Assembly: GCA_035552155.1 (NCBI GenBank)
Contig: DASZLX010000032.1
Coordinates: 44,903 to 108,902 of the forward strand
Length of the DNA stretch: 64,000 nucleotides
DNA from: Verrucomicrobiia bacterium
GTDB taxonomy: Bacteria; Verrucomicrobiota; Verrucomicrobiia; Limisphaerales; DASXHY01
Direction of reading: 5' to 3'
Made by a program: the position numbers and the translations under genes. Of this stretch, positions 11,910 to 64,000 are shown one piece after another. Positions within the stretch are counted from its first letter, which is position 1, and every line of letters starts with the position of its first letter. Under the pieces are notes generated by a model. It had not been told where the DNA came from. It worked only from the letters and a program-made list of their open reading frames with translations, and did not search any database.

Positions 11910-11928
11910 AACGCACCTTTCGTTGCGG

Positions 11929-11958
11929 CGCGGACGGCGCAAGCGCGCCGTCCCTACC
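11929..11958. repeat. REP-like hairpin
   Basis: ggacggcgc aagc gcgccgtcc (9-bp stem) followed by ctacc. Confidence 0.8.
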
Positions 11959-15006: not shown

Positions 15007-15081
15007 AGGCGTCATCCTTGGACATGTTTTCCAACGCTCCCACTGTGGAGCTTTTACCCAATTGTCCCTGACAAAGCAAGG

Positions 15082-32241: not shown

Positions 32242-33297
32242 TCAGCCCACCTCCAGCAGTGCGCCGTGGCAACTGAAACCGGCGCCGAACGAACTCATCC
32301 ACCAAAGGCCGGGCGGGACGCTGTCGTTCAGCGCGTTTTGCAAAACGAAATAGATCGACGGACTGCTCACGTTGCCGTATTCGCGCAGCACGGCTTCGCT
32401 CCAGCGCACGTCGCGGTCGCTCAGGCCCAACGCATCGCGCAGGGCGGCGAGCACATCACGCCCACCGGGATGCAGGACCCAGCCGGCGACCTGCGAGCGG
32501 TCCACGTTCGCGCGCGCGAGGGTATCGGCAAACAATTTGCCGACGTGTTGCGCGGCCAGGGCGGGCACCTGTGGGGCGAGAATGTTGCGGAGCATCCCGC
32601 TTTTTTGTTCGAACCGCAGAAACTCGCGGTCGGCCGGCACGGTCAATGAGCCGCCGATTTTCCATTTCACGGAGCGATTGGCGCCTGGTTCATTGGCAAG
32701 CACCGCGGCGCCGGCGCCGTCGCCGAAAAGACAGGCGCTGATCAAGACGCCGATATCGTCGTCCAAATAAAATGCCGCGCTGCAGATCTCGACGCACACC
32801 GACAACACGCGGCCGGCGCGGCCGGCAGCGAGCAGGGCATCCGCCACGCGCAAATTCGGCAGGGCCGCGCCGCAGCCTTGCCCAACGAGATCGAAAGTCA
32901 TCGCGTCCTTGCGCAGGCCGAGCCGCTCACCGACGTAGCTCGTGAGGCCGGGACACAAATATCCGGTGCAGGTGCTGACGACGATGGCGTCGATGTCCGC
33001 GGGTTTTATTTGAGCGTCGGCAAAGGCGCGTTCGGCGGCTTGCGCGGCGAGCAGCGGGGCGTTTTGGGAGAAGCGCGCGTGCAGGGCATCGGGCGTGAGG
33101 TCGAAGGCTTGGTTGAGATTCTCCAATGATAAATGGCGCGTGGTAATGCCATTGGCGCCGGAGAGGACTTTTTTCAGAATGGCGCGGGAGCGGGGAGTAA
33201 GCTCGCGAAAGCGGGTGGAATTCTGGAGCGCGTCCCAGCATTGCGCTTGTGTGTAGCAGTGCGAGGGCGCGGCGGTGCCAAGTCCGGTGATGTACAT
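32242..33297 (-). CDS. type III polyketide synthase (chalcone/stilbene synthase superfamily)
   Basis: Cys-His-Asn triad contexts VVSTCTGYLCPG, WVLHPGGRDV and EYGNVSSPSIYF. 351 aa. Confidence 0.9.
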   Translation of the reverse strand: MYITGLGTAAPSHCYTQAQCWDALQNSTRFRELTPRSRAILKKVLSGANGITTRHLSLENLNQAFDLTPDALHARFSQNAPLLAAQAAERAFADAQIKPADIDAIVVSTCTGYLCPGLTSYVGERLGLRKDAMTFDLVGQGCGAALPNLRVADALLAAGRAGRVLSVCVEICSAAFYLDDDIGVLISACLFGDGAGAAVLANEPGANRSVKWKIGGSLTVPADREFLRFEQKSGMLRNILAPQVPALAAQHVGKLFADTLARANVDRSQVAGWVLHPGGRDVLAALRDALGLSDRDVRWSEAVLREYGNVSSPSIYFVLQNALNDSVPPGLWWMSSFGAGFSCHGALLEVG

Positions 33298-39742: not shown

Positions 39743-39757
39743 TTTTTCGAACGCGTT

Positions 39758-40201
39758 ATGAACCGGAAAACAATTTTATTGGTGGAGGACAATGCCAATG
39801 ACGAATATCTCACCCTGCGGGCGCTGAAAAAATACAACGTGGCCAATGACGTGGTGGTGGCGCGCGACGGTGTGGAGGCGCTGGATTATCTGTTTGGCGA
39901 CGGCCCGCACGCCGGGCGCGATACCCGGGAGACTCCGCTCGTGGTGCTGCTGGATTTGAAATTGCCGAAGATTGACGGGCTGGAAGTGTTGCGCCGCATC
40001 CGCAACGACGAACGCACGCGCCTGCTGCCGGTGGTGATCCTTACCTCGTCAAACGAAGAGCGGGACGTCATCAACGGCTACAAGCTCGGCACCAACAGCT
40101 ACGTGCAGAAACCGGTGGACTTTACGGCCTTCATGGACGCCGTGGGACAATTGGGGCTATATTGGCTCATGTTAAACCAACCCGCACCGCCGCCAAAATG
40201 A
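39758..40201 (+). CDS. stand-alone response-regulator receiver protein
   Basis: LLVEDNAND, LDLKLPKIDG and SYVQKP receiver motifs. No output domain. Confidence 0.9.
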   Translation: MNRKTILLVEDNANDEYLTLRALKKYNVANDVVVARDGVEALDYLFGDGPHAGRDTRETPLVVLLDLKLPKIDGLEVLRRIRNDERTRLLPVVILTSSNEERDVINGYKLGTNSYVQKPVDFTAFMDAVGQLGLYWLMLNQPAPPPK

Positions 40202-41733
40202 ATATGACGAGGCCATTGCAGGTTTTGCTGGTGGAAGATTCGGAAAACGATGCCGCCTTGCTGGAACTTGCTTTGCAACGCACCGGATTCTCGACCCAGT
40301 GCGAACGGGTGGAAACGGGCGAGGGCCTTGCCGCCGCGCTCGAAAATCAGAATTGGGACGTGGTGGTGGCTGATTATGTCATGCCGCAGTTTGACGGCCT
40401 GAGCGCGCTGGCCATGGTGAAGGAAAAAGGGCTCGACCTGCCGTTCATCATCGTTTCCGGGCACATCACGGATGACACCGCCGTGGCGGCCATGAAGGCG
40501 GGGGCGCACGACTACGTGATGAAGGACAATCTCACGCGGTTGGGCTCGGCGGTGGAGCGTGAGTTGCGGGACGCGGAGGTGCGCCGCGCGCGGAAAATGA
40601 CCGAGAAAAAGTTATGGGAGGAACATGCCTTCCGCTCGGCGATCGAGAATTCCATTCCCTCCGGCATCGTTGTGCTAAACCTGGACGGCAAGTTGACCTA
40701 CGTGAATCCGGCTTTTTGCGAAATGGTGGGTTGGAGCGAATCCGAGTTGATCGGTACGAAAGCGCCGTTCGCCTATTGGCCCGAGGAGGAGGTGGAGCGG
40801 ATCACTTCGGAAATGGCCCGGGTCATCGAGGGTGCGGTGCCTACGGACGGATTCGAGCTGCGTTTTTGCCGCAGTTCGGGCGAGCGTTTTGACGTGCTCG
40901 TGCTGGTCACGGCGTTGCGCGACAGTTTTGACAACGTGAGTGGGTGGCTCAGTTCGATCACGGACATTACCGAGCGCAAAAAGGCCGAGGCTGAATTACG
41001 CCGTTCGCACGAGGAACTGGAACGGCGCGTGCAGGAGCGCACGACGGATCTTTCGACGGCGAACTCGCGGTTGAAATCGGAGATCGCCGAGCGCCGCCGG
41101 CTGGAGCATGAATTATTAGACATCACGGAAAAGGAACGCCGCCGCATCGGTCTGGATTTGCATGATGATCTAGGCCAGAAACTGGCCGGCGTGGCGCTGA
41201 TGGCCAAGGGGCTGCAATTGAAACTGGCCAAACAGCGCTCGAGCGAATCCGCCGATGCGGGCAAGATCCACGAATTGCTCGAACAGGCCATGAGCCATGC
41301 CCGCGACCTGGCTCGCGACCTGACCACCCTGGATTTGAGTGAAAGTGATTTGCCCTCCGCCATCGAAAAGCTGGCGGCCCATGTGAAGGAGTCCTTTGGC
41401 ATTTCGTGCCGGTTTAAAGCGGACGGTATCATTCCGCCGCTGGAAGCCAACACGGTGCGGCAGCTTTATAAAATAACACAGGAAGCGCTGACGAATGCCA
41501 TCAAGCATGGCAAGGCGAGACAGGTGAGCATTCAACTTTCCAACGGCGACAGCAAACTGGCGCTGACCATCCGCAACAGCGGCGCGCCGTTTCCATCGGT
41601 GGTGGGACGAAACGCGGGGATGGGATTGCGCATCATGAATTACCGCGCCAACTTGATCGGGGCGTCCCTGGAAATCAAACCCGGCGATCCCGAAGGCACG
41701 GTCGTGACCTGCATGGTGCCGTTGAAAAAATAG
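40198..41733 (+). CDS. hybrid receiver-PAS-histidine kinase (HisKA_3 / NarX-DegS type)
   Basis: ATGA-coupled to the receiver gene. REC (LLVEDSENDA...ADYVMPQFDG), a PAS region, H-box LHDDLGQKLAG, and HATPase (GMGLRIM). Confidence 0.9.
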   Translation: MNMTRPLQVLLVEDSENDAALLELALQRTGFSTQCERVETGEGLAAALENQNWDVVVADYVMPQFDGLSALAMVKEKGLDLPFIIVSGHITDDTAVAAMKAGAHDYVMKDNLTRLGSAVERELRDAEVRRARKMTEKKLWEEHAFRSAIENSIPSGIVVLNLDGKLTYVNPAFCEMVGWSESELIGTKAPFAYWPEEEVERITSEMARVIEGAVPTDGFELRFCRSSGERFDVLVLVTALRDSFDNVSGWLSSITDITERKKAEAELRRSHEELERRVQERTTDLSTANSRLKSEIAERRRLEHELLDITEKERRRIGLDLHDDLGQKLAGVALMAKGLQLKLAKQRSSESADAGKIHELLEQAMSHARDLARDLTTLDLSESDLPSAIEKLAAHVKESFGISCRFKADGIIPPLEANTVRQLYKITQEALTNAIKHGKARQVSIQLSNGDSKLALTIRNSGAPFPSVVGRNAGMGLRIMNYRANLIGASLEIKPGDPEGTVVTCMVPLKK

Positions 41734-49138: not shown

Positions 49139-51325
49139 ATGACGAAAACCACTTGGAACTACTTGGCTTCAACAGCACTTTTTTTGTCGGCCTGCTGCAC
49201 GCTTCACGCACAGACCTACTTTTTGCAGTCATTAGGAGGACAAGGGTCTGTTCCTTATCCGATGGACCCTTATCACGGAACCGTGACCATGACGGAGATC
49301 GCCGATGATATATTCGTGCTGGATGATGGCGACTCGGGCGCGTTTGGCAGCCTGATGACCATGTCCGAGGACGACGATCTGCCTCCCGGTCCCACTGGAG
49401 GAAGCGGAAGTCCGGGGACAAACTCACCCCCGCCTGCGCCACCGGACATCCGCAACTACGCGAAGTACAGCCAGCAGATTTTTTCATTGTTGGATACGAA
49501 CAGTGTGTTGAACGACGACAATAACACGAACCTCTATAATGCATGTGCAGCGATGCCGGTGGATACGAATACGATTCCGCTGCTTTTCATTCAGCCATAC
49601 GGTGCCAATGCGGTCATCATCCGCGCAGACAACTTTGATTATTCAGAAACCAACGCCGATTTCGCTCTTTTGATCTGTGACAAAGTTCAATCGCCAACGT
49701 GGAAGACCATTGATTTTTCGGGGGCCTCGGACACCCAGGACGGCTGGCTTGTCCAGGGCACGGTTCCGAACTGGAAAGTAACGAGTACGATGTTTATGCT
49801 CGTTACGAATTTGAACACACCGTACAATGCGTTCTTCCAGGCTGTTCCCTATAGCGGGCCGCAGGTTGCAATAATTGGAACCAATTCACCTTACGATGTG
49901 GTGAGCAATACGATTACGTTCACCACGCAGGTAGTGGATTTGAGTGGAACCACTAACGAACAGCTTGAAGTCAATATCGACGGGTATCCGTGTCGATATT
50001 CCTTCGGCAGCAGCAACACCTTCACCGTGGACACGACGTACAGTCCGTCAGGAACCTGCAACGTGTACTTGGAAGCTATGGGTACATCGAGCGTGAATGA
50101 CCCTGCCAATCCACCTCCGGTTGACACAGAGTTAGCTTTTCTGGGTCTAACTTCGATACCGCTGGATTTCGAGAATCCTACATATTTGCTTTTCCAGAGT
50201 GATTATGCCTCGCCGGATGTGGGGACCAACTACATCGAATTTGTGATCAGCAAGGCACAGGACTGCGCTGCTATCATTTCAGACCCGTTAGATGGCCATG
50301 TGATTTGGGCAGCCACGAATTATTTTTCAAGCCCTGGCCCCATTGCGATTCCGTGGAACTTCACAGAGGCAGATGGAGTGACGCCGTACACAAACGACAC
50401 ATACGCAGTGCAGATCATTGCATTTGATCCTCAATCGTTCTTCTTTACCAACCATATTGATTTTGCCCAAGTGAGGCATGGCGCGGGCACTTACCTGGCG
50501 TATGAGGAGGAGCCAGCTAACACGACGACAGGTATTTATCTGAATAGTGAGGCCGCAAACTGGACCGCGACAGAGCAGGAGCTTTTCAACGACATTTACC
50601 TGTATTTTGGTTTGACCGAATACACCACAGGCCAAGTCGGCGATAACCGCAATTACTCAGCGACAGGCTATCAATCAGCGATCACTCCAGGTTGGGACAC
50701 GTTCTTGAAGCCCGCGCTTCAGGCTACTTATGCGACGAATGCCTGCACCTATTCCGACCTCACCATTGCGCAGGCTCACGGCAGCGGTTCGACGATTGGT
50801 GGGGCCAATAGCGTTTCCACCAATGATTTCAACACACTTGATCTCGGACTTTGGGTGGCCGGGGCACCCCATCCGAATTGGAGGCTCCGCAAAGCTGCAC
50901 TTTGGGCCTGTTACAGTTCGAGCTACAAGGGCCGTGAGTCAATGACCACCCCCTATCCAGGATTTCCGACAGCGTGCGGCATTCGGGATAAAGGATTGCA
51001 GGAAATCTCATTCATGCGAAAGAATTGCGGACTATTCTTTAACGGCCTGCTTCCGCAAGGCGGTTTCGGCGGCAATACCTCCGTCGTAACAGCGCATGTC
51101 GCTGCATTTCTGGACCAGACGTGGGTGTGCGGTGCGAATCAGTATCCTGGCGGGTGCGACCCGACCTATTCGTTTCGCTTCGCGGTCAATGCCACGCGAG
51201 GCGTCTATAATCCGCAGATGGATTACGCTGGTCCGCTGCTTTTCGGGTTGGGACAGATGATTTATAGCAGCGTTTATGACGACGAACTGCTCATGCTCAA
51301 TTATTCAGATGTTAAATCGCCATAG
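49139..51325 (+). CDS. large secreted hypothetical protein
   Basis: Signal peptide (ALFLSACCTLHAQ). 728 aa, AT-richer. No family recognised. The C-terminal region has AQAHGSG ... LWACYSS (see findings). Confidence 0.7.
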   Translation: MTKTTWNYLASTALFLSACCTLHAQTYFLQSLGGQGSVPYPMDPYHGTVTMTEIADDIFVLDDGDSGAFGSLMTMSEDDDLPPGPTGGSGSPGTNSPPPAPPDIRNYAKYSQQIFSLLDTNSVLNDDNNTNLYNACAAMPVDTNTIPLLFIQPYGANAVIIRADNFDYSETNADFALLICDKVQSPTWKTIDFSGASDTQDGWLVQGTVPNWKVTSTMFMLVTNLNTPYNAFFQAVPYSGPQVAIIGTNSPYDVVSNTITFTTQVVDLSGTTNEQLEVNIDGYPCRYSFGSSNTFTVDTTYSPSGTCNVYLEAMGTSSVNDPANPPPVDTELAFLGLTSIPLDFENPTYLLFQSDYASPDVGTNYIEFVISKAQDCAAIISDPLDGHVIWAATNYFSSPGPIAIPWNFTEADGVTPYTNDTYAVQIIAFDPQSFFFTNHIDFAQVRHGAGTYLAYEEEPANTTTGIYLNSEAANWTATEQELFNDIYLYFGLTEYTTGQVGDNRNYSATGYQSAITPGWDTFLKPALQATYATNACTYSDLTIAQAHGSGSTIGGANSVSTNDFNTLDLGLWVAGAPHPNWRLRKAALWACYSSSYKGRESMTTPYPGFPTACGIRDKGLQEISFMRKNCGLFFNGLLPQGGFGGNTSVVTAHVAAFLDQTWVCGANQYPGGCDPTYSFRFAVNATRGVYNPQMDYAGPLLFGLGQMIYSSVYDDELLMLNYSDVKSP

Positions 51326-51328
51326 AAA

Positions 51329-52087
51329 ATGAAAAATTCTCGAGTCCTAGTCGTTATTTTCGGGATTGCGTTGTTCGTGCTAGTGGCATGGCTTGTGTGG
51401 GTTAAACCCTCGCACAAGCCGGTGCCTGTAGCCGAAGTCACTGTGCCTATTCAGTCCACTGTTGTTGCAACTAATCAAACCGCGCAGTCTCGAAAGACAC
51501 ATGAACCCCCCCGAAACCTTCTGAACACGAAACGCGCCAGCGAATTCACCGAGGACGAAAAGAAGGAATTGGCTGATATTTTCAAAACAAAACTCCGGCC
51601 TGCGGCGGAAAGGTGGTTTTTGGCGTACAGCAATCATGTGCCGTTCGCCCTGTCGGATTTGACTTTGGACAAGTTTGTCGAGCGGATCGGGAAGGATCCA
51701 TCATATCGGCTCTACACGTTCGTCCTGGGCGATGTTACTTTCACGATCCAGGAAACACAGGATAGTGCCAAAGTGAGTTATCTTATGAGTCGGAAGGCAG
51801 CGCAGGCAATGAATACTATACCAACCTCAGGAGCCGCCCCGAATCTCACACTGCCTGTCCAGCGTTCGGATGTCATCAGCATGGTACAGGCTGATTCCGG
51901 GGTGCGATTCAAGCCCAACGAGGTAATTATCCGTCCCACTGCAGCTGCATCTGCCCTAAATGGCGGGGCATTTGTCCATACTGTTCCGGCTGGCTCAAAC
52001 CCTCATAATGCTCTCAGCAGCAAGATAGATATGGTATTCAACGCGGACGGAAAGCTGGTGAACTACGACCGCGACCCGTTTTTCTAG
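51329..52087 (+). CDS. membrane-anchored hypothetical protein
   Basis: Starts 3 nt after the upstream stop. N-terminal TM VLVVIFGIALFVLVAWLVWV. Has a decayed paralog immediately downstream. Confidence 0.65.
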   Translation: MKNSRVLVVIFGIALFVLVAWLVWVKPSHKPVPVAEVTVPIQSTVVATNQTAQSRKTHEPPRNLLNTKRASEFTEDEKKELADIFKTKLRPAAERWFLAYSNHVPFALSDLTLDKFVERIGKDPSYRLYTFVLGDVTFTIQETQDSAKVSYLMSRKAAQAMNTIPTSGAAPNLTLPVQRSDVISMVQADSGVRFKPNEVIIRPTAAASALNGGAFVHTVPAGSNPHNALSSKIDMVFNADGKLVNYDRDPFF

Positions 52088-53163: not shown

Positions 53164-55368
53164 ATGATGTACGAAGTAGTAACGTCCGCCCGTCTGAAAG
53201 GGTTGGCGCTCAGGATTCTGTTATGGGGATCATTAATTTTAACGCCTTTTCTTGCGGTAGGTGCCGGAAGCGTGAGCCTGATTTGGAACGCCAGCACTAA
53301 TACGGGGATTACGGGCTATAATGTCTATTACGGCAGCGCGAGTCGCAATTACCCGAACCAAGTTTCCGCCGGTAACAACCTCAGTGCCGTGGTTTCCGGT
53401 TTGTCCAACGGAAATTACTTTTTTGCGGTGACCGCGGTGGACGCGCTCGGCAACGAGAGCGATTTTTCCAACGAAATCAATTACCAGATAGCCGGAGTCA
53501 ATCAGCCGCCGACGATTTCCTCTATTTCGAGCCTGAGCGTAACTGTCGGCCAGACCATTGCTCCCCTCGCTTTCACGATCAATGACCCCGACAGCGGTCC
53601 GAGCAGTTTGATTCTCTCGGTCGTTTCCTCGAATCCGGGAATGGTGCCCAACGGGAACATTGTGTTCGGCGGCAGCGGCCAGAACCGCACCCTGACCATC
53701 ACACCGGTCGACGGGCAGACCGGGGGCGCGGAAATTACGGTCACAGTGAGTGACGGGAGCCTGACCGCGCAGAGCAGCTTTGCGTTGAACATCCAGCCGG
53801 TTTCCTCAGGCAATCATGCGCCGACGATTTCGGCCATTGCCGACCAGAGCATCAATGCCGGTACGGCCGCCGGGCCGGTCGCTTTCACGATTAATGATCA
53901 GGACACGGGCGCGAGCGGTTTGACGCTCTCGGCGGTTTCCTCGAATACGGGATTGGTGCCGAATGGCAACGTCGTCTTCGGCGGCAGCGGCCAAAATCGC
54001 ACCGTGACCGTCACGCCCCGAGCAGGCCAGACGGGAGCCGCGCAGATTACCGTCACGGTAAGCGACGGGAGCCTGACCGCTCAGAGCAGCTTCACCGTGA
54101 ACGTCCAACCGGTCGTCTCAGTCAACCATGCGCCGACGATTTCGGCCATCGCCGACCAGAGCGCTTATGCGGGCGTGGCCACTGGACCGATTGGTTTCAC
54201 GATCAATGATCAGGATACGGGCGCGAACGGGTTGATCCTGTCGGCGGGTTCGTCGAATACGGGACTGGTGCCGAACGGGAACATAGTCTTCGGCGGCAGC
54301 GGCCAAAATCGTACAGTGACCATTACGCCGCTGGCGGGCCAGACGGGCGCGGCGCAGATTACCGTCACGGTGAGCGACGGAAGCCTGACCGCGCAGAGCA
54401 GCTTCGCCGTGAATGTTCAACAGTCCGCCGCACTGCCGACCGCGAGCGCGGGCAAGAGTACCTACAACGGATTGTTTTTTGACCCGGCCGGACTGCAACC
54501 GCAAAGCGCTGGCGCGGTTAAAATATCCGTGACGACTGGCGGCAGGTATTCCGGATCGGTGCAGATGGCGGCGGCCCGTTATTCTTTTAGCGGCCAGTTT
54601 GGCGCGCTCTGCCAGGGAACCGCCGTCATCCAGAGAAAGGGCGCCAACTCGCTCAACGTCAATTTCACTTTGAAACCCGGGTCCTCGGGACAGCTCACGG
54701 GGAGCATGTCGGATGGCACCTGGACCGCGCAAATTCTCGGTGGCCTGGCGGCGTTCAATTCGAAAACGAATCCCGCGCCTTATGCGGGCAGTTACACCCT
54801 GGAAATCCCGGGCCAAGCCGCGCCGTTTTCGTTGGGCAATGGTTTCGGCTCCATCAAGGTGGATGGCAGCGGCAATGTGAAGCTGACGGGAATGCTCGCC
54901 GACGGCACGAAACTCAGCCAATCGGCGCCGCTTTCGAGCGATGGCACCTGGCCGGTCTTTGTGCCGCTGTATTCCGGGAAAGGCCTGATCCTGGGCTGGA
55001 TATCGTTCGTGAGCCGCGCGGGTGATGACCTGCACGGGACGTTGAGCTGGCTCAAGTTGTCGGTGCCCAACACGCGTATTTATCCCGGCGGCCTAGCCGT
55101 GGCGAGCGACGCCGTCGGTTCCGCATTTGTGCCAGGACCTCAACCGTTCGTTTTCGGCAGAGTGCAACTGCAATTGGGAGAGGCAGGCAACGGCTTGATC
55201 ATGGCGCTTAAAGTTTCGCCCACGACGGGCCTGTTCAACGGCAACATTCTGGATCGCGCCACCGGAAAACCGGAAAAGTTCCAAGGGGCTCTGCTGGACA
55301 AGGTGAACGCCGGCTATGGCTTTGTCCTCGGAACCAACCAAAGCACGCCCGTCACGCTGATCCAGTAG
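53164..55368 (+). CDS. large secreted protein: FN3-like module, three 104-aa Ig/cadherin-like repeats, C-terminal domain
   Basis: Signal anchor. SVSLIWNAS...GYNVYYG...YFFAVTAVDALGNES is FN3-like. Then 3 x (N[QH][PA]PTIS...FTIND.D.G...VPNGN.VFGGSGQNRT.T.TP..GQTG.A.ITVTVSDGSLTAQSSF). Confidence 0.8.
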   Translation: MMYEVVTSARLKGLALRILLWGSLILTPFLAVGAGSVSLIWNASTNTGITGYNVYYGSASRNYPNQVSAGNNLSAVVSGLSNGNYFFAVTAVDALGNESDFSNEINYQIAGVNQPPTISSISSLSVTVGQTIAPLAFTINDPDSGPSSLILSVVSSNPGMVPNGNIVFGGSGQNRTLTITPVDGQTGGAEITVTVSDGSLTAQSSFALNIQPVSSGNHAPTISAIADQSINAGTAAGPVAFTINDQDTGASGLTLSAVSSNTGLVPNGNVVFGGSGQNRTVTVTPRAGQTGAAQITVTVSDGSLTAQSSFTVNVQPVVSVNHAPTISAIADQSAYAGVATGPIGFTINDQDTGANGLILSAGSSNTGLVPNGNIVFGGSGQNRTVTITPLAGQTGAAQITVTVSDGSLTAQSSFAVNVQQSAALPTASAGKSTYNGLFFDPAGLQPQSAGAVKISVTTGGRYSGSVQMAAARYSFSGQFGALCQGTAVIQRKGANSLNVNFTLKPGSSGQLTGSMSDGTWTAQILGGLAAFNSKTNPAPYAGSYTLEIPGQAAPFSLGNGFGSIKVDGSGNVKLTGMLADGTKLSQSAPLSSDGTWPVFVPLYSGKGLILGWISFVSRAGDDLHGTLSWLKLSVPNTRIYPGGLAVASDAVGSAFVPGPQPFVFGRVQLQLGEAGNGLIMALKVSPTTGLFNGNILDRATGKPEKFQGALLDKVNAGYGFVLGTNQSTPVTLIQ
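53500..54430 (+). repeat. tandem repeat, 3 x 312 nt, in-frame
   Basis: Units start at 53500, 53812 and 54124. Units 2 and 3 share long identical runs, e.g. ccatgcgccgacgatttcggccat.gccgaccagagc. Confidence 0.9.
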
Positions 55369-55572
55369 CATTCGCCGGTTTGTTTTCAAACCACTCGTAC
55401 ACAATCAGATGCGATTAAGAACCCCCTCACATAAAGGGGTTTTGGATGAGGCCAATCGATCGATTCTCTCTGTCGACTTAAAGGGTCTTTGTAGGCCAAA
55501 CACCGACAGGAGAATCAGCCCATTACGGAGGTGGCTGATTGGGCTCTCACTGGCATTCTGGGAGTCCGTTAA

Positions 55573-56103
55573 ATGAAGAAGATTAGCTGGTTTGAATTTG
55601 GTTTGGTTGTCGTGGTGGCTTGGCTGTCAGCATGCGGCATCGCAAAATGTGACTCCAGTGTTTCACTCCAGTGGAACGCTAACGCCGATCCGTCGGTGGT
55701 CGGTTACAATCTCTATTATGGCGGGGCCACTCGTGACTACACCAATGCCATTGACCTCGGTCCCGCCACGAATACCCTCGTGGGCGGTTTGACCGAGGGG
55801 AAAACGTACTTCTTCGCGGTGACGGCCTACGATGCTTACGGGGATGAGAGTGATTACTCCGAGGAAACGATCTACATTGTTCCGGGATATCTCGTCCTGA
55901 CTCCCGGGGCGAGTCCGGGGGCGGGTGTCCGTATTCAGTTTCCGGTCGCGTCGGGTCATTGGTACGAGATTCAGGAATCCCCGGATTTGCAGTCCTGGAC
56001 CACCATCCAGAAAGTGCTCGGAAGCATGACCAACGGATGGGTGGAATACGATCCTTCCCCGACCAATCAGGGTCCGCAATTTTTCCGACTGATACTTCAT
56101 TAG
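55573..56103 (+). CDS. secreted FN3-like protein with C-terminal FFRL-ending module
   Basis: Signal peptide. SVSLQWNAN...GYNLYYG...YFFAVTAYDAYGDES is paralogous to the N-terminus of 53164-55368. The tail is WYEIQESPDLQSW...GPQFFRLILH. Confidence 0.75.
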   Translation: MKKISWFEFGLVVVVAWLSACGIAKCDSSVSLQWNANADPSVVGYNLYYGGATRDYTNAIDLGPATNTLVGGLTEGKTYFFAVTAYDAYGDESDYSEETIYIVPGYLVLTPGASPGAGVRIQFPVASGHWYEIQESPDLQSWTTIQKVLGSMTNGWVEYDPSPTNQGPQFFRLILH

Positions 56104-56232
56104 ATTCTCAAGGCGTTCACTTCCATCGTCTTGGAAACCGACGGTAATCTTGGCTTCGTTAGGTAGCTTTACGGATTCTGGCCGTGTACTTGCTTGCTAT
56201 TCCGTCGAAAGCCAGTTTTCATGATATAAGAA

Positions 56233-56910
56233 GTGAAACTATCGACTGACCAACCTAAGCGGCAGCGGATTTTACTGGTGGACGACCACCCTTTGGTGCG
56301 TCGGGCGCTTAAGCAAACTATTGAGCGCGAACAGGATTTGACGATTTGTGGCGAGGCGGAAGATCGGGAAGAGGCGCTCGCCGTCCTGGAAAGCTCGGCC
56401 GCGAGCATGGCGATTGTGGATTTGACCCTGAAAAATTCGGATGGATTGGAACTGGTGAAAGATATTCGGCAAAAATATCCCCAGGTTCTAACCCTCGTGT
56501 TATCAATGCATAACGAATCACTTCATGCCGAACGTGCCATCCGCGCGGGGGCCAATGGGTATATTTCCAAGCAGGAAGCTCCTGCCGAGGTGATGCGGGC
56601 GGTGCGCAAGGTATTGGGCGGCGAAATTTATTGGCCGGAGAAGGCGGTCGTCGAGACCTTCAACCGTCTTGCCGGCAGAGGGTTCGAGTCGAATGACGGT
56701 GCCACGGCGCGCCTTTCTGGACGCGAATTACAGGTTTTTGAATTGATCGGAACTGGTGCTACTCCCGCACAAATTGCCGCAATTATGGACGTGGAGGTCA
56801 GCACCGTGGACACTTACCGGAGCCGGATCAAGGATAAGCTCAGCCTCAAAAGCGCAAACGAATTGAGGCATGAGGCGATCCGCTGGAACGTCGCCAAAAA
56901 CACCCGCTGA
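56233..56910 (+). CDS. NarL/LuxR-family response regulator
   Basis: REC (ILLVDDHPLVR, VDLTLKNSDG) plus a LuxR HTH (LSGRELQVFELIGTGATPAQIAAIMDVEVSTVDTYRSRI). GTG start. Confidence 0.9.
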   Translation: MKLSTDQPKRQRILLVDDHPLVRRALKQTIEREQDLTICGEAEDREEALAVLESSAASMAIVDLTLKNSDGLELVKDIRQKYPQVLTLVLSMHNESLHAERAIRAGANGYISKQEAPAEVMRAVRKVLGGEIYWPEKAVVETFNRLAGRGFESNDGATARLSGRELQVFELIGTGATPAQIAAIMDVEVSTVDTYRSRIKDKLSLKSANELRHEAIRWNVAKNTR

Positions 56911-57079
56911 AATGGTTCTCATTCAACGAATTAGAAATGCAGTTTTTCACGTCCCGGCAAGCCCCCGGGGGTGTAGGTGTTTTCCAGTACAAGACTTGTC
57001 GTGGCAAATAGCTACAGCAAAATCTGTATAAGCCACAAGTTTCCCAAAGAGCCGAGACGTGGTTGAATCACGCACGCCT

Positions 57080-57095
57080 TGGAACGGTTGTCGCA
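57080..57095 (+). promoter_or_regulatory. candidate sigma-54 (-24/-12) promoter
   Basis: TGGAACGGTTGTCGCA compared with consensus TGGCAC-N5-TTGCA. The GG and GC dinucleotides are at the canonical spacing. Lies 26 nt upstream of the NusG-paralog ATG. Confidence 0.35.
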
Positions 57096-57120
57096 GGTTT
57101 TTCGGTTGGGTGAAGTTTTT

Positions 57121-57762
57121 ATGTCAGTTTTTGAGTCCAGAATTATAGATTTCGGAGATGTCGAAGGCCGTATTTTCGCGGCACAGCCGGCATTTTCGCC
57201 CGCGCCTGCGGCGCAGGATACGCTGGCGTGGTATTGCGCGCGGACGAAGCCGAAGCATGAGCACATTGTGGCGGCGGGGCTGAAAAGAAATCTGGGCCTG
57301 GAAGTATTTCACCCGCGTTTGCGGATAGAACGGCCCACGCGGCGTGGAGTGGTGCGCGTGGTTGAGCCGCTGTTTCCTTGTTATGTATTTGTCCGTTGCA
57401 ACATCGACGAGTCCCTGGACAACGTTCGGTATGTCAACGGAGTCAGCAGCCTGGTTCATTTCGGACAACGCATCCCGGTTGTCCCGGATGCCGTGGTGGA
57501 CGAGTTGAAACAGTGTTTTGAATCGCAGGAACCGATGGACGTGGAGGAGCGTCTCGTCCCGGGCACTGAGGTGACGGTGGGCGAGGGTGCGTTTCATGGG
57601 TTTAACGGGATTGTATTGCGCGTCATGCCGGCGAAGCAGCGCGTGCAGATCCTGCTCGATTTTTTAGGCCGAACGACTTTGGCGGAAGTGGATCGCAAAT
57701 CGCTGATTTTGGAAAACCGATCCATGGCCGAGATGATGCCTTCGCTGGCGATGGCGAAGTAG
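57121..57762 (+). CDS. NusG-family paralog (RfaH/UpxY/LoaP-like specialised antiterminator)
   Basis: NGN-domain start WYCARTKPKHEH...GLEVFHP...PLFPCYVFV and a KOW-like GTEVTVGEGAFHGFNGIV. Heads a polysaccharide locus. Confidence 0.8.
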   Translation: MSVFESRIIDFGDVEGRIFAAQPAFSPAPAAQDTLAWYCARTKPKHEHIVAAGLKRNLGLEVFHPRLRIERPTRRGVVRVVEPLFPCYVFVRCNIDESLDNVRYVNGVSSLVHFGQRIPVVPDAVVDELKQCFESQEPMDVEERLVPGTEVTVGEGAFHGFNGIVLRVMPAKQRVQILLDFLGRTTLAEVDRKSLILENRSMAEMMPSLAMAK

Positions 57763-58125: not shown

Positions 58126-58878
58126 ATGAATCCCTTTTCTTCAGTCAACACCTGCCCTCTGCAAAGCCTGACGGCGTCCGGCGGCATCCCGTGGTGGAAA
58201 CGCGCCCTGGATGTGCTTTGCGTGGTCCTGCTGTTGCCGCTGCTGGCGTTGGTGGGTTTGGTGGTGGCAGCGGTCATCAAGATCGTTTCGCCCGGTCCCA
58301 TCTTTTTCCGGCAGGAGCGCATTGGCTATCGTGGCCGCCCGTTCATGTGCTTCAAATTCCGCACCATGATCGTCAATGCGGATACGGATGTTCACAAAGG
58401 GCACCTGGAGGAATTGATTTCGTCCAATCTTCCCATGACCAAGCTCGACGGTGATGACCGGCGCGTGATTCCCGGGGGCATCTGGCTGCGTTCACTGGGC
58501 CTGGATGAATTGCCCCAGCTTATCAATGTGCTGCGCGGAGAGATGAGCCTCGTCGGGCCGCGTCCCTGCGTTTCCTACGAGTACGAAAAATATCTTCCGC
58601 GCCATCGCATCCGTTGCGCGACGCTGCCCGGCCTGACCGGTTTGTGGCAGGTGAATGACAAGAACAACACCACTTTCGAGGAGATGATGGATTTGGACAT
58701 TTACTACGTCCACAACAAGTCTCTTTGGATGGACGTGAGCATTCTCGCTCGGACGTTTCCCGCAGTGCTTCTTCAAACCCGGGAAGTTCGGCGCAAGAAG
58801 AGGAATGCCTCAGAGACGGTGTTGGTGCCAGGAGCAACGGCAGCGCGTGCGGTGCGCTCGCCCGACCAGGCTTCCTGA
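58126..58878 (+). CDS. polyprenyl-phosphate sugar-phosphate transferase (bacterial sugar transferase family, priming GT)
   Basis: WWKRALDV, SPGPIFFRQERIG, FKFRTM, DELPQLINVLRGEMSLVGPRP. Confidence 0.9.
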   Translation: MNPFSSVNTCPLQSLTASGGIPWWKRALDVLCVVLLLPLLALVGLVVAAVIKIVSPGPIFFRQERIGYRGRPFMCFKFRTMIVNADTDVHKGHLEELISSNLPMTKLDGDDRRVIPGGIWLRSLGLDELPQLINVLRGEMSLVGPRPCVSYEYEKYLPRHRIRCATLPGLTGLWQVNDKNNTTFEEMMDLDIYYVHNKSLWMDVSILARTFPAVLLQTREVRRKKRNASETVLVPGATAARAVRSPDQAS

Positions 58879-59070: not shown

Positions 59071-60345
59071 ATGACTAAGCCAATCAAAGTCGGCGTGGTG
59101 GGTTGCGGCTATTGGGGCCCGAACCTCATCCGCAACTTCCGGTCGCTTCCGGATTGCAACCTCAAGATGATGTGCGATCTCAGCGAAGACCGCTTGAAAC
59201 ATCTGAAGACCTTGTATCCGGAGGTCAAGGGCGAGACGGATTTCAGCCATATGCTCAACGGCGCCGGGCTGGACGCCATTGTCATCGCCACCAATTTGAA
59301 AGCGCATTACCCGATGGCCAAGGCGAGTTTGCTGGCGGGCAAGCACACCTTCATTGAAAAGCCGATGGCCGCATCGCTGAGCGAATGCGAAGAGCTATTG
59401 GCCATCGCGCAGCAAAAAGGACTGGTGCTCATGATCGGGCACACGTTTGTTTATTCGGCCGCGGTCAAAAAAATCAAAGAGATTGTCGAGTGGGGCGACC
59501 TGGGTGACATCCGTTATATTTCGGCGCGCCGCCTCAACCTCGGGTTGTTCCAGCGGGACATCAATGTGGCGTGGGACCTCGCCTCGCATGACATTTCAAT
59601 CATTCTTCACATCATGGATGAAATGCCGATCAGCGTGAATTGCCGCGGCAGCGCGCACATCACGCCCGGCGTCGAAGATGTTACTTCCATGTGCCTGACT
59701 TTCCGCAAGGACCGCTCCGCCATCATTCACAGCAGCTGGCTCGATCCGCGCAAAATCCGGGAGATGACCATTGTGGGCAGCAAGCGGATGATTGTTTATG
59801 ACGACGTGGCGCCGCTGGAAAAAATCCGCGTATTCGACGTGCGCGTCGAGCGTCCGCCGCATTACGACACGTTCGCGGAATTTCATTACGCCTACCATTA
59901 CGGGGACGTTTATGCGCCGTATATCAAGCAGGAGGAGCCGCTCAAAACCGAATGCCAGCATTTCCTTGATTGCATTCGCGAGAGCAAATCGCCGATGTCC
60001 AACGGCACCCACGGAGTGGAAGCGGTGAAAATCCTGGAAGCTTCCTCGCTGTCCCTGAAACAAAGCGGCAGCGCCGTCCGGCTGGATCAGGTGGAGGCGT
60101 TGCGGAATCAATCGGCGAATAAAGCGAATGGCCTGGCCATCGCGCGCAGCATCAACAACGGGATTTCCAAGGCGACGAGAATTCCCAAGTCCAACGGCAT
60201 TTCGAAAACGCCGAGAATTCCCAAGCTCAACGGAGCGGCCAAAACCAACGGCAACGGTCATGGTAATGGCAATGGCAATGGCAACGGCGCGCGCGGAGGC
60301 GATTCAAAAACTTCCTATCGCTCGCTTCCGGAAGCGCAGGGTTGA
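59071..60345 (+). CDS. Gfo/Idh/MocA-family sugar-nucleotide oxidoreductase with low-complexity C-terminal tail
   Basis: IKVGVVGCGYWGPN Rossmann motif and the EKP motif (FIEKPMA). The tail is NGISKATRIPKSNGISKTPRIPKLNG...NGNGHGNGNGNGNG. Confidence 0.9.
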   Translation: MTKPIKVGVVGCGYWGPNLIRNFRSLPDCNLKMMCDLSEDRLKHLKTLYPEVKGETDFSHMLNGAGLDAIVIATNLKAHYPMAKASLLAGKHTFIEKPMAASLSECEELLAIAQQKGLVLMIGHTFVYSAAVKKIKEIVEWGDLGDIRYISARRLNLGLFQRDINVAWDLASHDISIILHIMDEMPISVNCRGSAHITPGVEDVTSMCLTFRKDRSAIIHSSWLDPRKIREMTIVGSKRMIVYDDVAPLEKIRVFDVRVERPPHYDTFAEFHYAYHYGDVYAPYIKQEEPLKTECQHFLDCIRESKSPMSNGTHGVEAVKILEASSLSLKQSGSAVRLDQVEALRNQSANKANGLAIARSINNGISKATRIPKSNGISKTPRIPKLNGAAKTNGNGHGNGNGNGNGARGGDSKTSYRSLPEAQG

Positions 60346-60369: not shown

Positions 60370-60861
60370 ATGAGCAAGGATTCCATGTTTCAGCAGATCG
60401 CCTCCGACGTAAAGTTGGGAAAGGGCGTGCGCATCTTTGGCTTCACGAATCTGTACGGTTGCGAAATCGGCGATGACGTCAAGATTGGAACCTTTGTAGA
60501 AATTCAGAAGGGGGCGCGCATCGGCAATCGCTGCAAAATTTCCAGCCACACTTTTATCTGCGAAGGCGTGGAGCTGGAGGATGAAGTGTTCGTGGGCCAT
60601 AACGTGACCTTCGTCAATGACCTTTATCCCCGCGCCACCAATGGCGACGGCGGCTTGCAGCAGGAATCGGATTGGGAACGCGTTCCCACGCTGGTCAAGC
60701 GCGGCGCCTCCATCGGCTCCGGCTCAACGCTGCTCTGCGGCGTGACGGTGGGCGAGCGGGCGTTGGTGGGAGCAGGCAGCGTGGTGACCAAGGACGTGCC
60801 CGCGTTCACGGTCGTGGCTGGCAATCCGGCGCGCGTCATCAAAACATTGCCTCGCGAATAG
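60370..60861 (+). CDS. hexapeptide-repeat sugar N-acetyltransferase (LbH family)
   Basis: Repeated [LIV]G..x..I pattern; GASIGSGSTLLCGVTVGERALVGAGSVVTKDVPAFTVVAGNPARVI. Confidence 0.9.
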   Translation: MSKDSMFQQIASDVKLGKGVRIFGFTNLYGCEIGDDVKIGTFVEIQKGARIGNRCKISSHTFICEGVELEDEVFVGHNVTFVNDLYPRATNGDGGLQQESDWERVPTLVKRGASIGSGSTLLCGVTVGERALVGAGSVVTKDVPAFTVVAGNPARVIKTLPRE

Positions 60862-60883: not shown

Positions 60884-61987
60884 ATGAATGGGGTTGCTGA
60901 AGTGACTTCCCGCGCGGCACAAACTGCCGCGCGAACGGCGTGCGCTCCCCTGGAGCCGCCGGTCGTCATCAATCCTTTGGAATTTCAGCGGTGGGACACG
61001 CAACTGGCCAATCTCCCCGGCGCTTCATTTTTTCACGGCACAGCCTGGCCGCGCGTGTTGCGGGAAACTTACGGGCACGAACCGGTTTATTTTTGCCGCT
61101 TTTCCGGCGGGGAATTGAAGCAATTGCTGCCCGTGATGGAAGTGTCGAGCGCGTGCACCGGGCGCCGCGGGGTTTCGCTGCCCTTCGCGGATTTTTGCGC
61201 TCCGCTCAATTCGAGCGACGAAGATTTAAGCGCGCTGTATGCGTTCGCGGTCGAGCATGGCCGCCGGCGGAATTGGCGGCATCTCGAGACGCGCGGTGAC
61301 TTCGGCCAATGGCGCGGCGCTTCGCCGTCGGTCGCGTTCTTCGGTCATGCTCTCGCGCTGGAAGGCGGCGAAGCGGCATTGTTCAAGGGATTGGATGGCG
61401 CAATGCGCCGGGGGATTCGCAAGGCGGAACAAAGCGGCGTGAAAGTTGAATTCGGCAGCACGCTGGAATCCGTCCGCATTTTTTATGCGCTGCATTGCCG
61501 GACGCGCCGGCGCCACGGCCTGCCGCCGCAGCCCGTCGAATTTTTTGAGAACATCGCGCGCCACGCGCTCGAGCCCGGCCATGGATTTGTGGCGATTGCG
61601 CGGCACGAACAACAGCCGGTGGCCGCGGCGGTATTTTTCCACGAAGGGCACGCCGCGCTTTACAAGTACGGAGCAAGCGATGAAGCGGCCCAACACCTGC
61701 GTCCGAACAATTTCCTGATGTGGGAAGCCATCCGGCGTTGCGCCGCCGGCGGGTTCGCGGAACTGCATTTTGGCCGCACCTCACTTTATAATGATGGCTT
61801 GCGGCATTTCAAACTCGGTTTCGGCGCGGTCGAGGAGCCGGTTGAATATGCCAAATATGATTTTCGCCGCGACGGTTTCGTTTCCGATGTGGACCGATCC
61901 GAAGGGTTGATGAATATGGTGTTCCGCTGTTTGCCGCAGCCGTTGCTCGTGCAGGCGGGCCGGATGTTGTACCGGCATTTGCAGTAA
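60884..61987 (+). CDS. FemAB-like / GNAT-fold acyltransferase of the type associated with PEP-CTERM exopolysaccharide loci
   Basis: About 367 aa, with FFHGTAW, RRGIRKAEQSGV and LMWEAIRRCAAGGFAELHFGRT. The family call rests on recollection of FemAB-related proteins in such loci. Confidence 0.7.
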   Translation: MNGVAEVTSRAAQTAARTACAPLEPPVVINPLEFQRWDTQLANLPGASFFHGTAWPRVLRETYGHEPVYFCRFSGGELKQLLPVMEVSSACTGRRGVSLPFADFCAPLNSSDEDLSALYAFAVEHGRRRNWRHLETRGDFGQWRGASPSVAFFGHALALEGGEAALFKGLDGAMRRGIRKAEQSGVKVEFGSTLESVRIFYALHCRTRRRHGLPPQPVEFFENIARHALEPGHGFVAIARHEQQPVAAAVFFHEGHAALYKYGASDEAAQHLRPNNFLMWEAIRRCAAGGFAELHFGRTSLYNDGLRHFKLGFGAVEEPVEYAKYDFRRDGFVSDVDRSEGLMNMVFRCLPQPLLVQAGRMLYRHLQ

Positions 61988-62029
61988 GTGATAACAGCGG
62001 AAAAGGAAAGAGAAGCAGGTGATCAATAC

Positions 62030-64000
62030 ATGAATGCGAAACCGACACGTCCTCACGCGCCAATGCTGACGCTGGGAGACATTTATTACATCCTTTTCCG
62101 ACACAAATGGAAAATCGTCGTGATTTCCGCGATGGGATTGATTGCGGCGCTGGTGATACCGTTCGTATGGCCGCAGGTTTATGAGTCAGAAGCCAAGGTG
62201 CTCGTCAAATACGTGGTCGATAACCGGGTGCTGTCCGATCCCACGGGCAGTGCGCGCGTCTCGCTGCCGGATGCGCAGGGGCGTAATATCATCAACACCG
62301 AGTTGCAGATACTGACGAGCCTGGACCTCGCCCAGGAAGTGGCCACCAACGTCGGGCCGGACAAAATTTTGGGCAAGCCCAAGGCAAACGTGCTGGAGGC
62401 GGCGGCTTTCATTCACGGCCACCTGCTGGTGGATCCCAACAATAGCGATGTTATCCAGATCACCTTCACGCATCCCGACCCGGTCGTGGTGCAGCCGGTG
62501 CTGTCGCAGGTGATTTCCACCTACTTGGAACGGCATGCGCAGATTCATCGGCCCGAGGGCGCGGATGAATTCCTGACGCAGGAAACCGATCAGTTGAAAC
62601 ATCGGTTGCAGGAAACTGAAGAGGCATTGCGGGCTGCCAAAACGAACCTGGGAGTTATTTCACTGGACGACGCCGAGAAGGTGTTTGGCGAAAAAATCAG
62701 CAAGATTCAACAGGACATCGATGATTCCCAGGCGCTCCTCGCGCAGCATCAGGCCGCCGTCGATGAGCTGTCCAAGCGGACCAAGATTGATCCCCTTCCC
62801 ACCAACGCCGTGGCCGGAGCCGCAACGGGCACAAATACCCCCAGCCCGGAAAAACTGACCGAATATAAACATGTTTGCGACATGGTGGACGCATTTCGCA
62901 CCGAGGAAAAAGCCTTGTTGCTTCAGTTCCTGCCGGAAAATTCGCGGGTGAAGGATATCCGCGGCCAGATTGCCGCGGCGGAAAAACAAAAGAAACAAAT
63001 CGAAGACGAGAACCCCTCCCTGCTCGCGAAAAAAGTTGCGGACGCCAAAGTTGCCAATCCCGATTCTCTCCTGCAAAACAATTTGATCTCGGAAACGGCC
63101 ATCGTGGCGGGCTTGAAATCGAAGATAGATGTTTTGACCAATGAACTCGCCGAAGTCCGCGGGCATTTATCCGCCGTGGACGCGGGAGCGAGCCGGATAA
63201 CCGAACTGGAGCGCACGCAAAAACTGGAGGAGGCTCATTACACGTATTATTCTGAAAGCCTGGAAAATGCGCGCATTGACGAGGCTCTCGGGCCGGGCAA
63301 AGGCTCGAACATCAATACCATCCAAAGCCCCTCGCCGCCGTTTCGCGACAGCTCCAAGATGACCAAAACCGCCATGGGGGTGGGTATTTTCGGCATTGTT
63401 TTGGGTCTTGGCCTGGCGTTCTTCACCGAACTGTATCTGGATCATAGCGTGAGGCGCCCGACGGACATCGAGGCGCGCCTGGGCATCCCCTTGTTGCTTT
63501 CGATTCCGTATCGCAATGGCAAAGGCAAAGTGCCGCTGTTAAATGCTCCGCCGACAGCGGGTCTCACCCTGCGTTCGGAAGCATTGAACCGCACCGTTCA
63601 ATTGAATGGAGTCAAAACCACGGTCGGCCGGCTTCCGGAGAACCTCCTGGTGGTCGATGAAGGCTCGGTTTCCCTGCATCATTGCGAAATCTATTCGCGC
63701 AACGGCGAGGTCATTGTGAAAGACCTCGGCTCGACCAACGGCACTTTCGTCAATGGCGAGCGGATTGTTGAAATGTCGATCAAAGCCGGCCAGACGTTGC
63801 GCTTCGGCAACGTGGAATTCCGGGTGGAAAACAAGGATGCCAAGGCGGAATCTTCCGTCCCCGTGCCTTCCCCGACGGTGATGCCGCCCTGGGACCCGCG
63901 GCATGCGCTGCGGCCTTTCTACGATACGTTGCGCGACCGGTTGATTACCTATTTCGAAGTCAAAAACCTGACGCATAATCCGAAGCTCGTGGCGCTCACG
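62030..64000 (+). CDS. polysaccharide co-polymerase (Wzz/GumC-type) with embedded FHA domain; 3' end beyond the window
   Basis: Not in the supplied track because it has no stop in the window. My translation from ATG 62030 is open to 64000. TM1 is WKIVVISAMGLIAALVIPFVW, followed by a coiled-coil periplasmic region and TM2 AMGVGIFGIVLGLGLAFF. The FHA domain is VGRLPEN..VVDEGSVSLHHCEI...VKDLGSTNGTFVNGERI. The window ends at ...NPKLVALT, which looks like the lead-in to a P-loop kinase domain. Confidence 0.85.
   Translation, partial: MNAKPTRPHAPMLTLGDIYYILFRHKWKIVVISAMGLIAALVIPFVWPQVYESEAKVLVKYVVDNRVLSDPTGSARVSLPDAQGRNIINTELQILTSLDLAQEVATNVGPDKILGKPKANVLEAAAFIHGHLLVDPNNSDVIQITFTHPDPVVVQPVLSQVISTYLERHAQIHRPEGADEFLTQETDQLKHRLQETEEALRAAKTNLGVISLDDAEKVFGEKISKIQQDIDDSQALLAQHQAAVDELSKRTKIDPLPTNAVAGAATGTNTPSPEKLTEYKHVCDMVDAFRTEEKALLLQFLPENSRVKDIRGQIAAAEKQKKQIEDENPSLLAKKVADAKVANPDSLLQNNLISETAIVAGLKSKIDVLTNELAEVRGHLSAVDAGASRITELERTQKLEEAHYTYYSESLENARIDEALGPGKGSNINTIQSPSPPFRDSSKMTKTAMGVGIFGIVLGLGLAFFTELYLDHSVRRPTDIEARLGIPLLLSIPYRNGKGKVPLLNAPPTAGLTLRSEALNRTVQLNGVKTTVGRLPENLLVVDEGSVSLHHCEIYSRNGEVIVKDLGSTNGTFVNGERIVEMSIKAGQTLRFGNVEFRVENKDAKAESSVPVPSPTVMPPWDPRHALRPFYDTLRDRLITYFEVKNLTHNPKLVALT

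Follow-up and report, generated by a model that had tools for sequence, protein, structure and literature searches.

How might a polysaccharide export machine be controlled when its co-polymerase no longer appears to carry a working kinase? Wzx/Wzy-dependent export of capsules and exopolysaccharides is thought to be timed by the tyrosine-phosphorylation cycle of a co-polymerase that is itself a bacterial tyrosine kinase (BY-kinase). The question is raised by a gene at the end of a 64,000-nucleotide stretch of DNA (hereafter the window; GenBank assembly GCA_035552155.1, contig DASZLX010000032.1, positions 44,903 to 108,902 of the forward strand) from an uncultured Verrucomicrobiota bacterium. 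The gene encodes an 831-residue inner-membrane polysaccharide co-polymerase (PCP) of the PCP-2 (Wzc/PslE-like) class, in which a forkhead-associated (FHA) domain stands between the second transmembrane (TM) segment and a C-terminal P-loop domain that, judged from its motifs, is very probably a BY-pseudokinase of the PslE type and not a kinase. Considered as a whole, the locus is best explained, with somewhat better than even confidence, by a pseudokinase PCP-2 co-polymerase that has acquired an FHA domain and been placed under phosphothreonine (pThr)-dependent control.

The FHA domain itself is clear. Its structural extent is residues 512–601 (63563..63832; this and all features of the gene are on the plus strand), and the Pfam FHA model (PF00498) matches residues 530–593 with an E-value of 5.8e-18 and a score of 65.5 bits against a cut-off of 20.7. 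All the canonical motifs are there in the window copy: G533-R534 within VGRL (63623-63634), S548 and H551 of SLHH (residues 548–551, 63671-63682), and S568-T-N-G-T572 (63731-63745) in an STNGT..NG block that spans residues 568–576. The first-pass annotation, made from the letters of the window alone, had described just these motifs, and both the profile match and the fold agree with it. Among 50 FHA-bearing homologues, G533, H551 and T572 are kept in every one, S548 in 49 and R534 in 48. The domain is modelled by AlphaFold2 as a confident beta-sandwich with a predicted local distance difference test (pLDDT) score of about 79–93, and among its closest matches by Foldseek are the FHA domain of FhaA (template modelling score 0.87–0.90, root mean square deviation 1.6 Å) and those of GarA, OdhI, EmbR, DgcB and Rv1747 (0.8–0.9, about 1.6–2 Å); for FhaA and GarA/OdhI the scores span 0.81–0.90. 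The FHA domain has a mean pairwise identity of 0.58, the periplasmic domain one of 0.50 and the linker adjacent to the FHA domain one of only 0.26, a pattern that indicates selection on the FHA domain. Taken together, the fold and the residues kept suggest that the domain most likely binds pThr peptides.

The P-loop module that follows had been presumed to be a kinase, a reading that its sequence does not bear out. The best relative of the protein among solved structures is PslE (4.5e-23), ahead of the Wzc, VpsO and CapB kinase domains (1e-8 to 1e-9); the C-terminal domain also matches the kinase domains of VpsO, CapB, Wzc and Etk by phmmer (1.7e-9 to 4e-4). Its Walker A reads SCGGSAGVTS, with a Val aligned to the catalytic Lys of CapB and VpsO and to position 540 of Wzc; this Val is present in all 50 FHA-bearing members and in at least 90% of 90 family members, FHA-bearing and FHA-less together. 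The Walker A' motif DxDxR has become DMNVE (LLVDMNVEQ aligns to LLIDCDLRK of VpsO and LIVDGDMRK of CapB), with loss of the second Asp and the Arg, and D-M-N is kept in 47–50 of the 50 FHA-bearing members. Walker B is retained as an invariant YIIFDMPP. The final 30 residues hold one Tyr and no Tyr cluster. No other part of the protein is as conserved as this domain, with its mean pairwise identity of 83%; the domain must therefore be functional, very probably in a role other than that of a kinase, and it may still bind nucleotide. Such domains are not without precedent. According to the 2026 paper on the PslD-PslE structure (PMC13434223), PslE has no Walker Lys, no Tyr cluster, no kinase activity and no Wzb-like phosphatase; PCP-2 systems with BY-pseudokinases such as EcpK/EpsV and HfsB/HfsA are a recognised subfamily (PMC12004946), and GumC has been termed a 'pseudo-BY-kinase' (PMC9800525).

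The gene is only partly contained in the window. The frame from ATG 62030 stays open to base 64000 and covers the 5' 657 codons (62030..64000), in agreement with the at least 656 that had been noted earlier. It had also been remarked that the open reading frame (ORF) was absent from the supplied track; the sole cause is that the frame runs off the window end, as a result of which mechanical ORF lists miss it. We fetched the parent contig (JGI 3300036800, Ga0376674_0000190, L001; 119,851 bp), whose protein P0001 is 100% identical to the window protein across their common part. In it the frame enters the P-loop module without stop or frameshift and, counted from ATG 62030, is 831 codons long, with the stop codon about 525 nt beyond the window end; the last 174 codons, including the whole degenerate P-loop core, lie outside the window. 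The JGI gene call for P0001 starts at 62063, 11 codons later than ATG 62030. The latter is the better start, because it is preceded by a Shine-Dalgarno-like AGGTGA (62017..62022, 7 nt upstream) and because the residues that it adds, MNAKPTRPHAP, are kept in most homologues. The public start of P0001 is 11 codons too late.

In front of the FHA domain the protein has the usual layout of a co-polymerase. Hydropathy gives exactly two TM segments, TM1 at residues 27–50 (62108..62179) and TM2 at residues 447–470 (63368..63439). The 26 residues before TM1 form an N-terminal tail (62030..62107), and the Pfam Wzz model (PF02706) matches residues 14–107 (62069..62350) at 1.8e-10, scoring 41.4 bits against a cut-off of 25.5. 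Between the TM segments lies a periplasmic PCP domain of about 400 residues (51–446, 62180..63367), largely helical or coiled-coil and rendered as long helices in two AlphaFold2 models, with a proline-rich SPSPPFRD (residues 433–440, 63326-63349) just before TM2. Hydropathy, the modelled helices and the Wzz match thus agree with the succession of TM1, long coiled-coil region and TM2 that had been read from the sequence. By homology, both termini are predicted to be cytoplasmic. Among the models that the first-pass annotation had named for domain searches, Wzz and FHA matched, AAA_31/CBP_BcsQ gave a weak match in the C-terminal domain, and GNVR had no match at E≤1 in the window protein. Membership of TIGR03007 (the XrtA/PEP-CTERM chain-length determinant) was rejected, the score being 93.7 bits against an NCBIfam equivalog cut-off of 278.85. 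A protein with a PEP-CTERM tail is encoded at 4535-5140(+); it fits this sub-threshold match and is a hint that the organism has sorting of the XrtA type.

The cytoplasmic part begins with a helix and strand, RRPTDIEARLGIPLLLSIPY (residues 475–494, 63452..63511), that is largely invariant in 50 homologues and aligns to about 452–474 of Wzc and about 486–508 of PslE; this is the stretch whose conservation after TM2 had been pointed out before. On the far side of the FHA domain, a variable, low-confidence linker (63833..63904, 26% mean pairwise identity in the family) leads to a near-invariant helix, ALRPFYDTLRDRLITYFEV (residues 626–644, 63905..63961). The EX2RX2R oligomerisation motif of BY-kinases lies in the helix that precedes Walker A. 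By position, the near-invariant LRPFYDTLRDRL helix may be the counterpart of that helix here, with the motif in the form D/E-x-x-R-x-R. The window closes on a KLVALT strand (63983..64000) leading to the degenerate Walker A, which begins just beyond the window end. The residues ...NPKLVALT align to the strand directly before Walker A of Wzc, VpsO and CapB, as expected from the earlier suggestion of a lead-in to a P-loop. The top Foldseek match of the full-length model is full-length Wzc (6e-18). A first AlphaFold run with 50 close homologues modelled the alpha/beta C-terminal domain poorly and a 90-sequence alignment improved it; residues 695–744 still fall below a pLDDT of 50 in the latter model, and because of this weakness the relative placement of FHA domain and pseudokinase is uninterpretable.

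Comparison with relatives shows where the FHA domain came to lie. The form with an FHA domain accounts for 58 of the 120 best protein clusters. FHA-bearing and FHA-less relatives have the same flanks, SIPY-x-NGK..LL.AP and PWDP.HALRPFY; between them, FHA-less orthologues carry a low-complexity loop of 56–137 residues rich in S, T, G, N and P, and FHA-bearing ones a fixed 128–134 residues of linker plus FHA domain. By alignment to Wzc, the insertion site falls between the post-TM2 strand and the pre-Walker-A helix. A neighbour-joining tree built with the FHA region masked, and including 30 full-length FHA-bearing sequences, places these in one clade with no FHA-less member within it. The FHA domain is a single insertion, retained and selected; in orthologues without it, the loop that received it is disordered.

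The co-polymerase as such is widespread in Verrucomicrobiota, and the FHA form makes up one sub-clade of it. Among GTDB species representatives there are at least 396 relatives, nearly all labelled Verrucomicrobiota, and just one of the best 80 has the FHA domain (L002, a complete 5.9-Mb Verrucomicrobiae chromosome from a metagenome-assembled genome, MAG); the complete chromosome OY969416.1 is an example of a sequence with the FHA form. At 50% clustering, a phmmer search of 1.84 billion proteins with the segment from TM2 through the FHA domain to the lead-in returned two representatives of the FHA-bearing co-polymerase (P0015 and P0040) among the best 150 matches. Ten other matches with an FHA domain in mid-protein were checked as candidates for an independent fusion to a co-polymerase and rejected, as all of them have several FHA domains, in most cases fused to an oxidoreductase, and none is a co-polymerase. 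A short FHA query against an index of 5.8 billion proteins found 24 short FHA proteins and nothing else. The top matches outside the co-polymerases (P0193, P0277, P0258, P0259, P0172 and others) have a pyridine-nucleotide-disulphide oxidoreductase domain followed by three to four tandem FHA domains, sometimes with zinc ribbons, an architecture with which we are not familiar.

JGI automatic annotation already lists a Wzz/FHA-type domain combination for several of the co-polymerases, and the NCBI-derived homologues have no protein name recorded. The first-pass annotation knew of no characterisation of this architecture, and our search of the full-text literature likewise found no description of an FHA domain with a polysaccharide co-polymerase, chain-length determinant, Wzc or BY-kinase; the EcpK paper never mentions FHA (PMC12004946). 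What is new is the combination of FHA domain and pseudokinase co-polymerase, each component and the pseudokinase concept being known already.

The gene is part of a polysaccharide locus, in which initiating transferases, sugar-modifying enzymes and glycosyltransferases flank it. Upstream, in order and all on the plus strand, are a response regulator/GerE match (56233-56910), a NusG paralogue (57079-57762), Bac_transf (58126-58878), a GFO_IDH_MocA oxidoreductase (59071-60345), a hexapeptide acyltransferase (60370-60861) and an Acetyltransf_6/FemAB protein (60884-61987). Downstream on the contig follow DUF354, UDP-GlcNAc 2-epimerase-like, WbaP-like transferase and WecG genes, with asparagine-synthase-like, epimerase and nucleotidyltransferase genes further on. 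The NusG paralogue, which heads the operon in FHA-bearing and FHA-less loci alike, is reminiscent of UpxY and RfaH, operon-specific antiterminators of polysaccharide loci elsewhere. The order from NusG to the co-polymerase recurs in the FHA-bearing loci and in most FHA-less ones, which makes the two forms orthologues within one conserved locus. The downstream portion varies among loci and holds Wzy_C genes in syntenic relatives; within 10 kb of the gene on this contig, which does not extend much further, no Wzy, Wzx or Poly_export gene was seen.

Some upstream features follow the FHA clade more closely. All six FHA-bearing loci with flanks have an fn3 match upstream of the NusG paralogue (53164-56910(+) in the window; also L002 and L082-L085) and a response-regulator/GerE match (within a fragmented gene call in L085), and five of the six have a match to a Big_9/cadherin-like surface protein. 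In the 79 FHA-less loci the corresponding counts are 5 for fn3, about 16 for the response regulator and 1 for Big_9. A functional link between these genes and the FHA clade is possible. Some 20 kb before the start of the locus (37931-41733(+)), genes for a MASE1 histidine kinase, a receiver without further domains and a receiver-PAS-HisKA_3 hybrid kinase are clustered; apart from two-component signalling, no signalling machinery was seen near the polysaccharide genes. Two adjacent ORFs of 728 and 252 residues (49139-52087(+)) have neither a Pfam match nor a counterpart in the other FHA-bearing loci; because no Poly_export (OPX) gene was found, it is possible that they are an unrecognised outer-membrane or export component.

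What could an FHA domain do at this place? A cycle of tyrosine autophosphorylation and dephosphorylation controls Wzc octamers. This canonical cycle would be inoperable here because the C-terminal domain is of the PslE pseudokinase type, and the FHA domain likely serves to bring a co-polymerase that no longer has a phosphotyrosine cycle under pThr-dependent control. Should the protein form an octamer like Wzc or PslE, up to eight FHA domains would hang beneath the membrane ring. A pThr epitope would be written by a Hanks-type Ser/Thr kinase whose gene lies at another site in the genome, such kinases being numerous in the Planctomycetes-Verrucomicrobia-Chlamydiae superphylum, and the FHA domain would bind this epitope on the flexible tail or linker of a neighbouring subunit or on a partner in the assembly machinery. 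Assembly of the co-polymerase or recruitment of partners would then depend on phosphorylation again, by reading pThr instead of writing phosphotyrosine. The first-pass annotation had seen the FHA domain as coupling Ser/Thr-kinase signalling directly to polymerisation; given the pseudokinase and the lack of a nearby Hanks-type kinase or PP2C, we infer such a coupling from the intact FHA residues.

A number of results weigh against a pThr-dependent role. Asn570 of the STNGT loop is kept in only 35 of 50 members (70%). The Pfam model for the cytoplasmic domain of the type III secretion system (T3SS) protein YscD (Yop-YscD_cpl) matches the domain at 2.5e-11, and YscD has an FHA-fold domain that is not known to depend on phosphopeptides. 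The search for a nearby Hanks-type kinase or PP2C that had been proposed came back empty: the window, the next 10 kb downstream and the 10-kb surroundings of the gene in 85 related loci yielded no Pkinase, PP2C, Poly_export or low-molecular-weight protein tyrosine phosphatase (LMW-PTP) gene, and in five other FHA-bearing loci there was no Hanks kinase or PP2C within 10 kb of the gene. This screen comprised Pfam scans of about 30 window ORFs, regular expressions over all six-frame ORFs of the window and 81 loci, and precomputed Pfam lists of the five FHA-bearing loci. As for a ligand within the protein, a column-wise comparison of Thr frequency between FHA-bearing and FHA-less members yielded only the weak candidates T6, T640 and T806, and the disordered cytoplasmic segments and linkers have no conserved Thr specific to the FHA clade. 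Thr6, in the N-terminal tail, is present in about 75% of FHA-bearing members, and FHA-less members have similar tails; T640 (100% of FHA-bearing versus 28% of FHA-less members) and T806 (84% versus 12%) are in folded regions.

As an alternative, the FHA domain could be a phosphorylation-independent structural module, i.e. an extra cytoplasmic ring or docking platform that recruits, for example, glycosyltransferases, in the manner of YscD/PrgH of the T3SS. In its favour are the YscD match and the empty search for a kinase or phosphatase; the NCBIfam GltG model matches as well, the fixed linker length suggests a structural constraint, and pseudokinase PCPs have been proposed to act as scaffolds (PMC12004946). 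We nevertheless consider a purely structural role unlikely, if the most serious of the alternatives, as the general FHA model matches far better than that of YscD, conservation is 96–100% for the Arg and Ser that contact phosphate and for the structural His, no element of the GR/SxxH/STNGT set is missing from the window copy, and the nearest structures (FhaA, GarA, OdhI, EmbR and DgcB) are bona fide pThr-binding domains. A reading that keeps the kinase module presumed by the first-pass annotation is improbable; in it, the unusual P-loop would belong to a BY-kinase or ATPase that is still active, and the FHA domain would couple Ser/Thr-kinase input directly to tyrosine autophosphorylation. In its favour, the C-terminal domain has the P-loop fold and is homologous to the kinase domains of Wzc, VpsO and CapB; it is of very high identity and still has a glycine-rich loop, a Walker-A Ser/Thr and the Walker-B Asp; and the Wzc K540M mutant retains ATP-Mg binding. 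Against this stand the invariant Val, the degenerate Walker A' and the missing Tyr cluster, the lack of any LMW-PTP (LMWPc) or PHP phosphatase gene in the locus, and PslE, which has the same substitution and no kinase activity (PMC13434223). That the domain combination is an artefact of assembly or gene calling (a chimeric contig or read-through of two genes) might be suspected of metagenomic sequence with an ORF truncated in the window. It is excluded for practical purposes by the agreement of many independent assemblies: the same unbroken architecture occurs in the 58 protein clusters, from JGI, ENA, NCBI and Logan assemblies that include contigs of 0.45–1.6 Mb and the complete 5.9-Mb MAG chromosome.

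Against the background of known systems, the closest counterpart is PslE of Pseudomonas aeruginosa (PDB 9v75/9v6l; PMC13434223), which has the same succession of N-terminal tail, TM1, helical periplasmic domain, TM2 and cytoplasmic P-loop domain, a similar Lys-less loop (GEGVT in PslE, SAGVT here), a tail with one Tyr, and no phosphatase partner. It differs in having no FHA domain and a shorter cytoplasmic domain almost directly after TM2; in the window protein about 130 residues (FHA domain and linkers) are inserted and the A' region, though degenerate, is present. Identity between the two is low and confined to the PCP core. The active BY-kinases of class PCP-2a (Wzc, Etk and VpsO) have a similar overall fold, a homologous P-loop domain, the Walker-B DxPP and a helix at the position of the oligomerisation motif, whereas the catalytic Lys, the DxDxR of Walker A' and the Tyr cluster are missing from the window protein and their basic, flexible juxtamembrane loop is replaced by the FHA domain. 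EcpK/EpsV of Myxococcus and HfsB/HfsA of Caulobacter are likewise phosphotyrosine-independent PCP-2 systems with a dead scaffold of BY-kinase fold; they are bipartite, and EcpK has no Walker motif at all, whereas the pseudokinase of the window protein is fused to the co-polymerase, retains Walker B and is joined by an FHA domain (PMC12004946 for the bipartite systems).

Elsewhere in the window, three paralogues at 11439-11942(-), 14140-15015(-) and 15494-15988(-) start with MYKIIGADG.(E/P)YGP and look like a small family of membrane or secreted proteins; the one that was scanned matches GYF_2, DUF4190 and DUF1559. At 31546-33297(-), a type III polyketide synthase (chalcone/stilbene-synthase-like) adjoins an S-adenosylmethionine-dependent methyltransferase.

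FHA domains that read pThr written by Hanks-type kinases are fused to, or recruited by, membrane export and cell-envelope components in the Mycobacterium tuberculosis ATP-binding cassette exporter Rv1747, FhaA-MviN, EmbR, TagH/Fha1 of the type VI secretion system and DgcB of Bdellovibrio, the FHA domain of the last binding a phosphorylated N-terminal tail. None of these is a polysaccharide co-polymerase, and their kinases are known and often encoded nearby. By analogy, a more specific version of pThr-dependent control can be sketched, one that we put forward tentatively and regard as rather doubtful in its details: a co-polymerase that lost tyrosine autophosphorylation would have regained a phospho-switch through a pThr reader, with a Hanks-type kinase marking the co-polymerase itself or a Wzy, Wzx or transferase partner. 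The eight FHA domains of the ring would bind the phosphorylated N-terminal tail, linker or partner in trans, and Ser/Thr signalling, in place of a BY-kinase/phosphatase pair, would gate octamer assembly and with it chain length and export.

The impact of the finding is limited, as the clade is narrow and uncultured and envelope machines with fused FHA domains have precedents in other settings. Recent studies of PslE and EcpK/EpsV have nonetheless shown that the kinases are dead in many systems, which leads to the question of how pseudokinase PCPs are regulated. For this question the FHA-bearing co-polymerase is a natural experiment and the source of a useful hypothesis, with R534, S548 and H551 as defined residues for mutation. 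It suggests that control may come from Ser/Thr phosphorylation instead, the implication being that Ser/Thr phospho-signalling may feed into a phosphotyrosine-independent co-polymerase. The presence of the FHA domain in such a protein hints at Ser/Thr-phosphorylation control of sugar-polymer export and, if the switch operates as sketched above, it would be a case of evolutionary rewiring within one machine, from a writer of phosphotyrosine to a reader of pThr.

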